Source: Escherichia coli O157:H7 (lineage in GTDB: Bacteria > Pseudomonadota > Gammaproteobacteria > Enterobacterales > Enterobacteriaceae). Taken from it: 64,000 bases of DNA. The notes under the pieces are model-generated. The model was not told the DNA's origin. It ran no database searches and saw only the letters and a list, made by a program, of their open reading frames with translations. This document shows positions 3,744 to 53,839 of the stretch, piece after piece. The DNA lies in assembly GCF_013167455.1 (NCBI RefSeq), contig NZ_CP038328.1; one strand, 5' to 3'. The stretch's first letter is position 1. Each line of letters begins with the position of its first letter. The position numbers and the translations under genes were made by a program.

Positions 3744-3762
3744 GCCGGGATTTATTCCCGGC
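3744..3762 (+). terminator. stem-loop immediately after tsx stop (gccggga tttat tcccggc)
   Basis: Perfect 7-bp inverted repeat 10 nt after the stop codon; weak T-tract. Confidence 0.5.
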
Positions 3763-3796
3763 ATTTCAGATTGTTAACAACGTACGCTTTGTTCAT

Positions 3797-3894
3797 GCCG
3801 GATGCGGCGTAAACGCTTTGTCCGGCCCACAAAAGCACGTAAATTCAATATATTGCTGAAATAACGTAGGCCTGATAAGCGTAGCGCATCAGGC
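3797..3894. repeat. REP/BIME-type extragenic palindromic repeats (two units)
   Basis: gccggatgcggcgtaaacgctttgtccggcc and taggcctgataagcgtagcgcatcaggca match the E. coli REP family. Confidence 0.8.
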
Positions 3895-3909
3895 AATTTT
3901 ACGTTTTAA

Positions 3910-4257
3910 TCACTTCTTCTTGTTCATCATCGCTTTCAGGTCAGCGAATGGGTTGTACTTCGCTTCACCGACATCTTTCTGCGCATCTTCCCCTGCGATA
4001 ACGGTCGTACCATACTGATCCGCTTCGGTATATTTCGAATGCTCATGATCGTGGCAATAGAGACAAAGCAATTCCCAGTTACTGCCATCTTCCGGGTTAT
4101 TGGTATGGTCGTGATCAATGTGGTGAACGGTAAGTTCACGCAGGTTGGAATAAACAAACTCGCGGGAACAGCGACCGCAGACCCACGGATAGATTTTTAA
4201 TGCTTTTTCGCGATAGCCGCTTTCTAACCGCGCATAGTTTTTTGGGATGATAGCCAT
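3910..4257 (-). CDS. yajD: HNH nuclease-family protein YajD
   Basis: 115 aa; His/Cys-rich HNH-like motif (HHIDHDHTNN...CLYCHDHEH); synteny next to tsx. Confidence 0.85.
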   Translation of the reverse strand: MAIIPKNYARLESGYREKALKIYPWVCGRCSREFVYSNLRELTVHHIDHDHTNNPEDGSNWELLCLYCHDHEHSKYTEADQYGTTVIAGEDAQKDVGEAKYNPFADLKAMMNKKK

Positions 4258-5994: not shown

Positions 5995-7842
5995 TCAGAT
6001 TGACAGCTTCTTGACGCGCTTGCCGCCATATAGCAGGTTTACGATGGCACGCGTACCGACAATCGCGGTAAACATCGACGTCGCCACACCGATACCGGTA
6101 GTAATCGCGAACCCTTTAATTGCCCCGGTACCCACTGCGTACAGGATGATGACTTTAATCAGCGTGGTGATGTTCGCATCGAAGATAGAACTGAATGCGC
6201 CACGATAACCTTCATCAATTGCCTGTTGAACAGTACGTCCGTTGCTCAACTCTTCTTTAATACGTTCGTTGATCAGTACGTTCGCATCGACCGCTACCGC
6301 AAGGGTTAAGACGATACCCGCGATACCTGGCATACTCAGTGTTGCGCCTGGCAACAGCGACATAATACCGACGATCAAGATCAAGTTGGCAATCAGAGCA
6401 CTGGTCGCAATCAGACCAAACTTCTTATAGAAGATGATCATGAACAGAATAGAAACCAGCAGACCGGCAAGGCAAGCCTCCAGCCCCTGCTCAATGTTCT
6501 GCATACCCAGGGTCGGGCCAATTGTACGTTCTTCAACAATCTGAATCGGCGCGATCAACGCACCGGCACGCAGCAGCAGTGACAGCTGACGGGCTTCGTT
6601 CGGGTTGTTGATGCCGGTGATACGGAAGCTGTTACCCAGACGAGACTGGATGTTGGCGATGTTAATCACCTCTTCCTGTTTCACCAGAACCGCACGACCA
6701 TTTGCATCTTTCTTACCGCTGTCTTTGTACTCCACAAACAGGGTTGCCATCGGTTTGCCGATGTTGTCCTTGGTGAAGTTAGACATAATGTTGCCACCAG
6801 CGCTATCGAGCGAGATGTTAACCTGCGGCTGGTTGTATTCGTCCTGGCTGGAAGTGGAGTCGGTGATATGGTCACCGGTAAGAATTACGCGTTTGTACAG
6901 CACAACCGGCTGACCTTCGCGGGTCTGTTTCACTTCAGAGTCGCCCGGTACGCGACCGGATGCCGCAGCGGCCTGATCAACGTTGGTGTTTACCAGACGG
7001 AATTCCAGCGTTGCCGTCGCACCCAGAATCTCTTTCGCACGCGCAGTGTCCTGAATACCTGGCAGTTCAACAACGATACGGTCAGCACCCTGACGCTGAA
7101 CCACCGGCTCCGCCACGCCAAGTTGGTTTACACGGTTACGCAGGATATTGATGTTCTGCTGCACCGCATATTCACGCGCTTCACTCAGACGAGCATCGCT
7201 CATTACCGCACGCAGCTGGTTGCTGCCCTGACTGCTAATCACCAGGTCCGGATGACGCTTGCTCAGATACGCAATGGCTTCATCACGAGCTTTAGCATCG
7301 CGGAAAGTGATGCTCAGGCCGTAGTTATTTTCTTTACGAACGGTGGTATACGGGATGCCTTTTTCGCGCAGGTCGCTGCGCAGGCTATCGATATTTTGTT
7401 CCTGGAGTTTGCCAAGCGCGGTGTCCATATCCACTTCCATCAGGAAGTGAACGCCGCCACGCAGGTCAAGGCCGAGCTTCATCGGCTCAGCGTGAATAGC
7501 TGCCAGCCAGCGCGGCGTTGCCGGGGCAAGGTTAAGCGCCACGACGTATTTGTCACCCATAACGCCCATTAATGCTTCACGAGCGCGCAGCTGGGTGTCA
7601 GTGGAGTCGAAGCGCGCAAGAATAGCGCCCTCTTCCAGTGCCACAGACTTAGCAGTTATTTTTTCTTCTTGTAACGTTTTCTGGACCTGGATCAGCGTTT
7701 GCTCACTGGCGGCGACTCCGCGCGCACCAGTGATCTGAACAGCCGGATCCTCACCAAACAGGTTGGGAAGCGCATACAGCAGACCGATGACAATCACCAC
7801 GATCAGCATGACGTACTTCCACAAAGGATAACGGTTTAACAC
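5995..7842 (-). CDS. secD: protein translocase subunit SecD
   Basis: 615 aa, [30 protein letters not shown]...; large periplasmic domain plus 6 TM segments. Confidence 0.95.
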
Positions 7843-11171: not shown

Positions 11172-12617
11172 CTATTTTTTAGCATTCGCATCCAGCGGGG
11201 CGGCATAACAACGGTAAGAAAAACATTCGCTGGAATGATTGGCGATATCTTTAAAGTTGCTTTCAGCAACCCCCTCGAACATGAGTACCGTTCTGGACAA
11301 CTCTCCGTTTTCATTTATATGTGGAAAATCAAATTGGCTACTGAATCGCCATACATCTGTCTTTTCTGGCTCGCTCTTCACAGAGATATGTCGATGGAGG
11401 ACCCCTCCTGTAAACGTGCGCCAGAACAATTGTTGATCAAAATCTTGTAATATCGCAGACTTGGATGCTATTTGACGTAGTAAACCTGCATACCGTGGAC
11501 TGCCATTACGAGCAACATTATGCAAACCCTGACTAAAAGCATCAAACAAACAATAGATGTGATCACTAGTGAAAAAAGGTCTTAATTTTTTTTGTTCTTC
11601 ATCGCTGTAATCCAGGAGCATCTCATTGATTTCTTCCGGTGAGAATTTTAAGACAAAATTATCCTCAGAATTTGTTTGTTTCTTGTTTTTTTCAATATTC
11701 TTCTCCTCAATGCTCTTCGCATTTTGTTTCGCAATTATTTCCGCAGTTTTTTTCGCAATTTCTTCCGCAATTTTTTCCCGAGTTATTGATTTTAGACTAA
11801 CACCATCGATGTCAACCGGTGTTGTTTTCAGATCTCTCTGCGCGTCTTCCAAATTTGTCTTATAGAGTTTGTGCAGTTTATCGGCAGATACGTATCCGGA
11901 TGAAGAAATCTGGTGTGTACGCATGGGGGGCTGTTCACAAAGCATCGAGGCTATATCGTCTTTAAACTCTTTTACATTAAAGTTCTCGGCTTTAACCTTC
12001 CTTGTTATAAACCCCGCATCGGCAATTTTCTTCTCTAATTGTTTTGTACGTTTAGAATAATAAGCGTTGTTATCATAAAACTTTTCAAGAAGGGCCCACT
12101 CCTCAAGTTGCCTTATGTGATTTTTCAACTGTTGATGATCTATTTTATATTCATGTGTACTAGAATCATTTTGGTTGCAGGAGTTACAGATTTTTAAGCA
12201 TAATTTTCCATCAGATTTATCATCTATGGTATCAGTGAAAATATAGGACACTTCAATACTCTGCCCGTTCTTATCAGTCATCTCATATGACCATTGTCCC
12301 GTTCGTTTCGCATTCTTAATGACTTCGATCGACTCTACAGGACAACCATGAAGAATGGGCAGAATTTTATCAGGATGCTTAATGAGTAAAATTATTATAT
12401 TTACAATGTTTGAAAAGAAATTTTTGCTATTTTTTATTTCATCGATTTTTTCCGCTGAAATGTTTACTAAGTTTTCATTTCCGGAAATGAAAAGCGATTT
12501 GCCATAGGTGCTTTTTTTAAATTGTTCTTCTGTTTTAGAAAAGACATCCTCTTTAAAAGGTGGCAACTCAGTACCAGTAATAAACGGTTTCAATAAATTC
12601 GAATTTGAAATTGTCAT
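11172..12617 (-). CDS. hypothetical protein, 481 aa, low-GC orphan gene (function unknown)
   Basis: Long ORF with a good SD (GGAG 7 nt before the ATG); AT-rich codon usage unlike its neighbours; Lys/Glu-rich coiled-coil-like internal repeat (AEEIAKKTAEIIAKQNAKSIEEKNIEKNKK); Cys/His-containing C-terminal region; no recognisable catalytic motif. Confidence 0.6.
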   Translation of the reverse strand: MTISNSNLLKPFITGTELPPFKEDVFSKTEEQFKKSTYGKSLFISGNENLVNISAEKIDEIKNSKNFFSNIVNIIILLIKHPDKILPILHGCPVESIEVIKNAKRTGQWSYEMTDKNGQSIEVSYIFTDTIDDKSDGKLCLKICNSCNQNDSSTHEYKIDHQQLKNHIRQLEEWALLEKFYDNNAYYSKRTKQLEKKIADAGFITRKVKAENFNVKEFKDDIASMLCEQPPMRTHQISSSGYVSADKLHKLYKTNLEDAQRDLKTTPVDIDGVSLKSITREKIAEEIAKKTAEIIAKQNAKSIEEKNIEKNKKQTNSEDNFVLKFSPEEINEMLLDYSDEEQKKLRPFFTSDHIYCLFDAFSQGLHNVARNGSPRYAGLLRQIASKSAILQDFDQQLFWRTFTGGVLHRHISVKSEPEKTDVWRFSSQFDFPHINENGELSRTVLMFEGVAESNFKDIANHSSECFSYRCYAAPLDANAKK

Positions 12618-40337: not shown

Positions 40338-40395
40338 GATTTACGTTGCCAGATACGGCCTAAAACGCCTTATCTGGCATGACATTCCTGTTTGT

Positions 40396-44922: not shown

Positions 44923-47886
<2,964 letters not shown>

Positions 47887-52907: not shown

Positions 52908-53209
52908 GATTGTCTGCTCCCCTGTCTTGTTATGGGAGCAGTATTTCGTTGCGGGTCAGTTTGATAAAGGAATTAAAAGGTCTTGTTAAGAACAAAGCGT
53001 TTTTAGAAAAAAATCGGCAATGGTTAGCGAGTTTGCGCATTTTGCGGTTTTGGCGAACGTATCCCGCCGGTTCACAAGCCAGATAAGATGTGCGCGCTCC
53101 GGCAAATTATTGCCATTTTGTTACATCCATTCCATATCTGTCGCTGGTTGATTGCCAGCGCCGCGCCGTGATGCATGATAGGAGAATTAGATAATAAGAG
53201 AAGAAAAGT

Positions 53210-53839
53210 ATGATTCGGGTAGTGCTGGTGGATGACCATGTTGTGGTGCGCTCTGGCTTCGCACAATTACTCTCTCTGGAAGACGATCTGGAGGTCATTG
53301 GTCAGTACAGTAGTGCCGCGCAGGCATGGTCGGCATTAATCCGTGATGACGTCAATGTTGCCGTCATTGATATTGCCATGCCGGACGAAAACGGCCTCAG
53401 TTTGCTTAAGCGCCTGCGTGCACAAAAACCGCAATTTCGCGCCATTATTCTTAGCATTTATGACGCGCCAACCTTTGTGCAAAGCGCGCTGGATGCCGGT
53501 GCCAGCGGGTATTTAACCAAACGCTGTGGGCCGGAAGAGTTAGTACAGGCGGTGCGCTCGGTCGGGCTGGGCGGGCATTATCTCTGTGCCGATGCGATTC
53601 GGGCTTTACGCGGCGGCGGGCAACCCGCCCAGGCGCTGGAAATTCTCACCCCACGAGAACGTGAAGTGTTTGAGTTACTGGTCAAAGGAGACAGCGTTAA
53701 AGAGATCGCCTTTAAACTCGAACTCAGTCATAAAACGGTACATGTGCATCGCGCCAATGTGCTGGGAAAACTGAACTGCCATAGCACCATTGAACTGGTA
53801 CATTTTGCGCTCGACCACCATCTGCTGGCGGGGCATTAA
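53210..53839 (+). CDS. NarL/FixJ-family response regulator (UhpA-like)
   Basis: 209 aa; receiver domain (VVLVDDH...D) plus C-terminal LuxR-type HTH. Confidence 0.85.
   Translation: MIRVVLVDDHVVVRSGFAQLLSLEDDLEVIGQYSSAAQAWSALIRDDVNVAVIDIAMPDENGLSLLKRLRAQKPQFRAIILSIYDAPTFVQSALDAGASGYLTKRCGPEELVQAVRSVGLGGHYLCADAIRALRGGGQPAQALEILTPREREVFELLVKGDSVKEIAFKLELSHKTVHVHRANVLGKLNCHSTIELVHFALDHHLLAGH

Follow-up and report, generated by a model that had tools for sequence, protein, structure and literature searches.

A stretch of 64,000 nucleotides from the chromosome of Escherichia coli O157:H7, referred to here as the window, spans ribD to yaiL and carries palindromic repeats behind several of its genes. 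It also holds four accessory loci: a ParE/ParD toxin-antitoxin (TA) pair, a 481-aa open reading frame (ORF), a two-gene cassette behind rdgC (the 762/149 cassette), and an afu island. This raises the question whether the palindromes are members of the REP/BIME family, and whether such elements have set the borders of the accessory loci. We consider it very probable that the sites after tsx, araJ, rdgC and frmB are canonical REP/BIMEs of already described kinds, and that the borders of the accessory loci were not shaped by them.

The gene order is ribD-nrdR-yajI-tsx-yajD-(ParE/ParD)-secFD-yajC-tgt-queA-acpH-(481-aa ORF)-malZ-proY-brnQ-phoRB-sbcDC, continuing with araJ-mak-rdgC-(SF0329/DUF2773 cassette)-ppnP-aroM-yaiA-aroL-yaiI-proC-adrA-psiF-phoA-iraP-ddlA and ending with yaiZ-yaiY-yaiW-sbmA-ampH-iprA-ehaB-hemB-tauDCBA-(two-component system, uhpC-like, afuABC)-frmRAB-yaiL. 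This order and the 10-kb surroundings were taken from the RefSeq annotation of the O157 strain FRIK1989, from which the whole window differs by one 23-bp indel only; the first 25 kb show 100% identity to many E. coli O157:H7 chromosomes. About 5,400 genomes served for comparison (5,425 to 5,426 genomes; 5,470 records in one count), and structural allele classes were read from 40-row samples of this set, which rare alleles could escape. Two genes outside the loci under study deserve mention. At 37432-37477, phoA contains a perfect tandem duplication of 23 bp (GCGGCGGTCTGATCAGCCGTTAA twice) that is absent from FRIK1989 and K-12; the resulting frameshift leaves a longest phoA ORF of 403 aa vs 471 aa, and the gene looks like a pseudogene in this strain. 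The autotransporter gene ehaB (44944-47886) is intact here, whereas in K-12 the corresponding gene, yaiT, is interrupted by IS3 and has in part diverged or been deleted, with positions 46399-47792 of the window lacking a K-12 match.

REP/BIMEs are located at the 3′ ends of genes, where they form hairpins in the transcript, and members of the family have been reported to bind IHF (via the L linker of BIME-1), DNA gyrase and Pol I. BIME-1 elements consist of a z1 and a y REP in inverse orientation, joined by the conserved long linker L, which frequently contains an IHF site, and are single-copy at their locus; BIME-2 elements combine z2 and y REPs with a short linker and form tandem repeats, the number of which varies between strains (Ton-Hoang et al., PMC3333891). 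Bachellier et al. (1997; cited via PMC3333891) call BIMEs a major source of intergenic polymorphism in their title. The domesticated Y1 transposase TnpA-REP is thought to spread and amplify these elements, and the REPtron, in which BIMEs flank the tnpA-REP (RAYT, yafM) gene, presumably supplies the enzyme for their movement and amplification. In contrast to a REPtron, the elements of the window are non-autonomous copies; the annotation of the window and of the 10 kb to each side lists no tnpA-REP gene.

Five REP sites were located in the window (Table 1), all of them extragenic and each between the 3′ ends of convergent genes: tsx/yajD, araJ/mak, rdgC/SF0329, yaiY/yaiW and frmB/yaiL. Shuffled sequence yielded 0 matches to the y-type and 0 matches to the z1-type REP pattern; the y and z2 pairs, the rdgC REP and the yaiY/yaiW REP were located by a looser scan together with reading of the spacers. 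The elements are imperfect palindromes of 30–40 nt whose foot carries the GTAG/CTAC tetranucleotide. GTAG is found at 3866, 25918 and 63572, and the opposite tetranucleotide occurs as CTAC at 25896 and 63552 and as one-base variants at 3827 (CCAC) and 27977 (GTAC). Folding gave the imperfect hairpins to be expected of REPs, with energies of -13 to -25 kcal/mol and z-scores of -2.4 to -6.2. High dispersed copy number is displayed by the 98-bp unit behind tsx, which as a query is found at a median of at least 39 places per E. coli genome (5,425 genomes). Rfam, searched over the whole window at the gathering threshold, matched no family, REPs included, and the K-12 RefSeq feature list holds no REP or repeat_region entries. 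An earlier note on this DNA had read REP units after tsx, araJ, rdgC and frmB; consensus matches, folds and copy number bear out these four sites, to which the overlooked fifth, between yaiY and yaiW, has to be added.

Table 1. Features of the window discussed in the text (positions are those of the window).
Feature	Position	Strand	Details
tsx intrinsic-terminator-like hairpin	3744-3766	+	read from sequence; directly upstream of BIME-1
Complete BIME-1 mosaic	3767-3906		left flank, y REP, L linker, z1 REP, right flank; between convergent tsx and yajD
y-type REP	3797-3830	+	3 mismatches to y consensus; hairpin -18.2 kcal/mol
L linker	3831-3865		35 nt; IHF-consensus-like site ATTCAATATATTG at 3843-3855
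z1-type REP	3866-3894	+	5′ GTAG; hairpin -13.2 kcal/mol
ParE/ParD toxin-antitoxin segment	4324-5011	-	Pfam ParE_toxin, ParD_antitoxin; limits are breakpoints vs K-12
481-aa ORF segment	11155-12804	-	between the acpH and malZ stop codons
481-aa ORF	11172-12617
BIME-2, araJ/mak	25866-25954		convergent genes; y REP 25866-25899, 18-nt linker, z2 REP 25918-25954
Single REP behind rdgC	27944-27980	+	z2-like stem, GCCGGAT head; 20 bp past rdgC stop; hairpin -25 kcal/mol, z-score -6.2
SF0329/DUF2773 cassette	28009-30735	-	SF0329-family ORF (149 aa) and ORF with C-terminal DUF2773 (Pfam); intact here
Degenerate y-like REP, yaiY/yaiW spacer	40348-40378	+	hairpin -18.7 kcal/mol, z-score -5.4
afu island	53046-61069	+	two-component system, uhpC-like gene, afuABC; between divergent tauA and frmR
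BIME-2, frmB (fghA)/yaiL	63523-63608		convergent genes; y REP 63523-63555, linker, z2 REP 63572-63608

The element between tsx and yajD agrees with the BIME-1 (RIB, RIP) elements of E. coli in its parts and in their order, with one y and one inverted z1 REP in single copy at the locus, and displays no structural difference from them. At the level of single bases, two y REP stem positions differ from consensus (CTTTGTCC vs CCTTATCC). The y REP carries its CTAC-like tetranucleotide (here CCAC) at the 3′ end, and 3866-3894 is an exact minus-strand match to the short z1-type consensus. The linker aligns with those of the copies at fepA-entD and rnpB-yhaC, and its putative IHF site agrees with WATCAANNNNTTR at 12 of 13 positions. 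These two paralogs can be aligned from the left flank (TCAGATTGTT...) through the y REP, L and the z1 REP to the right flank (...TTTTGCGTTT). The family unit is thus the whole 140-bp mosaic, which begins just past the terminator hairpin of tsx and ends a few bases before the yajD stop codon at 3910.

Comparison of strains displays two alleles of this spacer, which measures 176 bp in O157, K-12 and E-1246 and 37 bp in SCU-172, M2021-10044802/2-E and SK1144. The short allele consists of the hairpin, an uninterrupted T6 run (TTTTTT) and then the yajD stop, and the block that it lacks is the BIME-1 family unit. Genomes without the tsx-yajD copy still match a 161-bp query over positions 7-158 with ~84% identity, at other loci. 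About 30% of records (1,669/5,470) have only such a paralogous best match (60–90% identity) to the tsx-yajD query, and the short class accounts for 10 of 40 sampled genomes. The 140-bp BIME-1 at tsx-yajD is gained or lost as a whole unit.

The sites at araJ-mak and frmB-yaiL resemble the BIME-2 elements of E. coli, with a y and a z2 REP joined by short linkers of 16–18 nt. Other than in tandemly amplified BIME-2, a single unit is present at each of the two loci in the O157 strain. At araJ-mak this one unit contrasts with two tandem units in K-12 (spacer 142 vs 244 bp), and at frmB-yaiL with two units in K-12 and several other strains, the spacer measuring either 124 bp or about 224 bp in the strains compared. 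These BIME-2s change their tandem copy number between strains. Variation of BIMEs both in presence or absence and in tandem number is published already. The degenerate REP between yaiY and yaiW has kept its stem by paired substitutions (GCCAGAT...ATCTGGC).

The single REP behind rdgC has a stop codon on either side, that of rdgC at 27924 and that of the 149-aa ORF at 28009. This REP is identical across six aligned E. coli alleles (intact, K-12-like and JNE170426-like forms: 100% conserved), and its position is kept in three other Escherichia lineages. The copy in Escherichia sp. E1V33 (locus ~6300-6400) is changed in both arms into a perfect palindrome (GCCGGATGTGACGC...GCGTCACATCCGGC), which suggests that the hairpin, and not the sequence as such, is under selection.

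The larger ORF of the cassette was given as 762 aa in the earlier note and has 759 aa in RefSeq. NCBIfam assigns the 149-aa protein to SF0329_fam, Pfam adds the DUF2773 C-terminus of the large protein, and neither protein has a PADLOC match or a Pfam or NCBIfam match other than to families of unknown function. The cassette query is covered to at least 80% in 443 genomes, the cassette being apparently intact in about 8% of E. coli, and in a sample of 40 rows distributed along the ranking, all 39 that were chromosomal had at least remnants of it. K-12 is homologous to the window through the REP to 28064, again at 28427-28796 (the ykiA pseudogene) and again from 30736. All breakpoints are internal to the cassette (28064/28065, 28426/28427, 28458/28459, 28778/28779, 28796/28797 and 30735/30736).

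They define three deletions: one of 28065-28426 between the 9-bp direct repeats GCYGTAACT (GCCGTAACT, GCTGTAACT) and a second of 28797-30735 with a 5-bp filler, both in the K-12-like form, and a third of 28459-28778, which the JNE170426-like remnant combines with the second. The latter form keeps the SF0329 ORF at full length, though it is marked as frameshifted by RefSeq. Escherichia sp. MOD1-EC7003 carries the second deletion alone. Decay is seen in steps: the second deletion alone, the second with the first, and the second with the third. Beyond E. coli, E. whittamii and E1V33 have the DUF2773 gene between ppnP and rdgC as well (72–73% amino-acid identity, 73% in E. whittamii), where a deletion of their own has taken out most of the SF0329 ORF. 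The 762/149 cassette is ancestral in Escherichia, and in most E. coli the gene pair is in decay through internal deletions. A further observation concerns the T-run of the SF0329 ORF (~28025-28031), in which O157 has one T more than the other aligned E. coli and Escherichia alleles; the extra T alters the C-terminal tail (149 aa vs 151 aa).

The TA segment takes the place of a 61-bp yajD-secF spacer of K-12 that holds the secF terminator hairpin. The tsx-secF query, TA segment included, is covered to at least 80% in 426 of 5,426 genomes. Neither a REP nor a repeat was seen at the edges of the segment, and SCU-172 possesses the TA pair without BIME-1, so that the two are independent of each other. 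Strain M2021-10044802/2-E carries IS200C in the same spacer (locus ~1000-1720), just 5′ of the secF terminator hairpin. This short spacer has received foreign DNA repeatedly, with ParE/ParD in O157 and IS200C in M2021-10044802/2-E.

The segment with the 481-aa ORF was found in 1,126 genomes, at the same site. Its left breakpoint falls within the last two acpH codons, and 4 bp separate the stop codons of acpH and malZ where the allele is empty. The insert has a GC content of 0.376, its borders are free of REPs, and neither Pfam nor NCBIfam nor PADLOC has a family that the protein matches above threshold. A long terminator-like inverted repeat (CAGCCCTGACA...TGTCAGGGCTG) is found at the malZ-proximal (upstream) edge of the ORF.

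The tauA-frmR locus exists in three alleles: the afu island in 518 genomes, a yaiS-yaiP-yaiX-yaiO island in most, and an island-free form in 594, S14 and SK1144 among its carriers. Measured against K-12, the difference begins at 52946. On the tauA side, the island-free allele shares ~100 bp of extra sequence with the afu type, and on the frmR side it has CCGGATAAATTTT in common with the yaiO type. Enclosed by these stretches, and located between the divergent promoters, is a private 64-bp segment with the degenerate REP GCCTGATGTGACGCTCACGCCTCTTATCATGCCTAC (~765-800 of the S14 locus). No clear REP was found at either edge of the afu island, nor at the two K-12 yaiS-yaiO border stretches that were read; the only REP that coincides with an island site is the one in the island-free allele of other strains, outside the window. 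This REP may have survived from an earlier arrangement, or it may have been inserted later. A look-up of FrmR returned E. coli-type contexts only.

As to the origin of the accessory loci, the FRIK1989 RefSeq annotation lists neither an integrase nor a transposase gene for the window and the 10 kb to each side of it, and the window contains no tRNA. The only direct or inverted repeats at the island borders are 7-8-mers, which are not above chance, about 37% of random junction pairs having a common 8-mer. None of the four loci therefore displays the integrase or transposase, the tRNA or att site or the flanking direct repeats of a mobile-element island. Between lineages the four inserts are 95.3–97.5% identical and their core flanks 95.8–99.7%; the GC contents of the inserts are 0.44, 0.38, 0.43 and 0.54, vs 0.51 for the window. 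The low GC of three of them (0.38–0.44) shows that these were once foreign. Together, identities and GC contents fit anciently acquired segments kept as alternative alleles, and do not fit recent delivery. The TA pair, the 481-aa gene and the afu island are old alternative alleles, and their borders are the ends of homology with the other allele. Such alleles would be kept or exchanged via homologous recombination in the conserved flanks. A comparable accessory gene lies a short way outside the window: espY3, which encodes a T3SS effector and is located between yajO and pgpA (locus 6009-7580), 4-2.4 kb upstream of position 1 of the window, with no mobility gene next to it.

Several other explanations have to be weighed against this account. 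The palindromes might be nothing but gene-specific intrinsic terminators or chance inverted repeats without a dispersed family, as their location at 3′ gene ends and their hairpin folds would allow. Matches to the family consensus against 0 in shuffled sequence, dozens of copies per genome, full-length paralogs at unrelated loci and the separate terminator hairpin of tsx upstream of the BIME contradict this reading, which is almost certainly wrong. REP-REP recombination junctions are known from the formation of F′128 and from lambda bio transducing phages (PMC1525189), and with this precedent the REP between rdgC and the cassette might have been a junction for insertion or removal of the cassette, either by REP-REP or by REP-targeted recombination as in F′128. 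The earlier note had suggested such a junction for a REP at 27943-27976 and had proposed a multi-genome alignment of the junctions as a check. The location at the rdgC-side edge of the cassette is correct. The alignment, however, places every breakpoint inside the cassette and at least 88 bp away from the REP, the nearest one within the 149-aa ORF; the 84 bp between REP and first breakpoint are shared by 5,420 of 5,426 genomes, the ppnP side has no second REP, and cassette and REP are already together in E. whittamii and E1V33. With an invariant REP and internal breakpoints, a junction is contradicted within E. coli and appears extremely unlikely. Both cassette and REP are old residents, and loss proceeded by internal deletions; hence the rdgC REP is not a junction. 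REPs do lie near variable loci, but unlike in F′128 and lambda bio no accessory-locus breakpoint in the window coincides with one, and neither the TA pair nor the 481-aa gene has a breakpoint in or at a REP; the afu island is a less clear case, as its island-free alternative holds a REP.

Recent delivery by a mobile element, with integrase or transposase genes just outside the window or later lost, would agree with the low GC of three inserts and with insertion sequences observed in these spacers elsewhere (IS200C in yajD-secF, IS2 and IS3 in K-12, IS1 near yaiO). This appears very unlikely in view of the lack of mobility genes in the window and within 10 kb, the lack of a tRNA, repeat scars not above chance, the presence of each insert at the same site in distant lineages with an identity like that of the core flanks, and the cassette remnants found species-wide. 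The old-acquisition account is thus retained for the window, and it agrees with what had been proposed for loci without mobility genes, tRNA or direct-repeat scars, namely old insertion or differential loss: the cassette is ancestral, its remnants are species-wide, and the inserts diverge like their flanks. For tauA-frmR, an event linked to REP or TnpA-REP may be considered, in which loss or exchange of an island left the REP behind or an ancestral spacer bearing the REP received the islands. The degenerate REP resides in the private segment of the island-free allele in 594 genomes, flanked by afu-type sequence on its left and yaiO-type sequence on its right. REPs are rare in spacers between divergent genes, such as this one. 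TnpA-REP moreover cleaves at a distance from the BIME in vitro, and capture of flanking genes has been proposed (PMC3333891). On the other hand, no clear REP is seen at the afu edges or the two K-12 yaiS-yaiO borders read, and a lone degenerate REP could have entered an empty spacer later, so that we regard such an event as unlikely. A broader proposal would take this REP and the filled and empty alleles at the T-run of tsx as in-vivo footprints of TnpA-REP, with BIMEs inserting as blocks at terminator T-tracts and occasionally mediating the loss or exchange of islands; this appears decidedly unlikely.

Taken as a whole, the earlier note was right about the REP/BIME identity of the repeats, about the absence of mobility genes, which now extends 10 kb beyond the window, and about old insertion, and it erred in its suggestion of a REP junction. 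REP/BIMEs, the IHF-binding L linker, variation between strains and the islands that distinguish O157 from K-12 in this region are established already, and the wider import of these data is therefore small. The negative result is nevertheless of use, as it excludes, on the scale of the population, a REP junction at the 762/149 cassette. Studies of the movement of BIMEs could draw on the filled and empty tsx-yajD alleles and on the REP in the empty tauA-frmR allele. If these sites were indeed footprints of TnpA-REP, they would provide natural substrates for defining the in-vivo ends and the target of BIME mobility.
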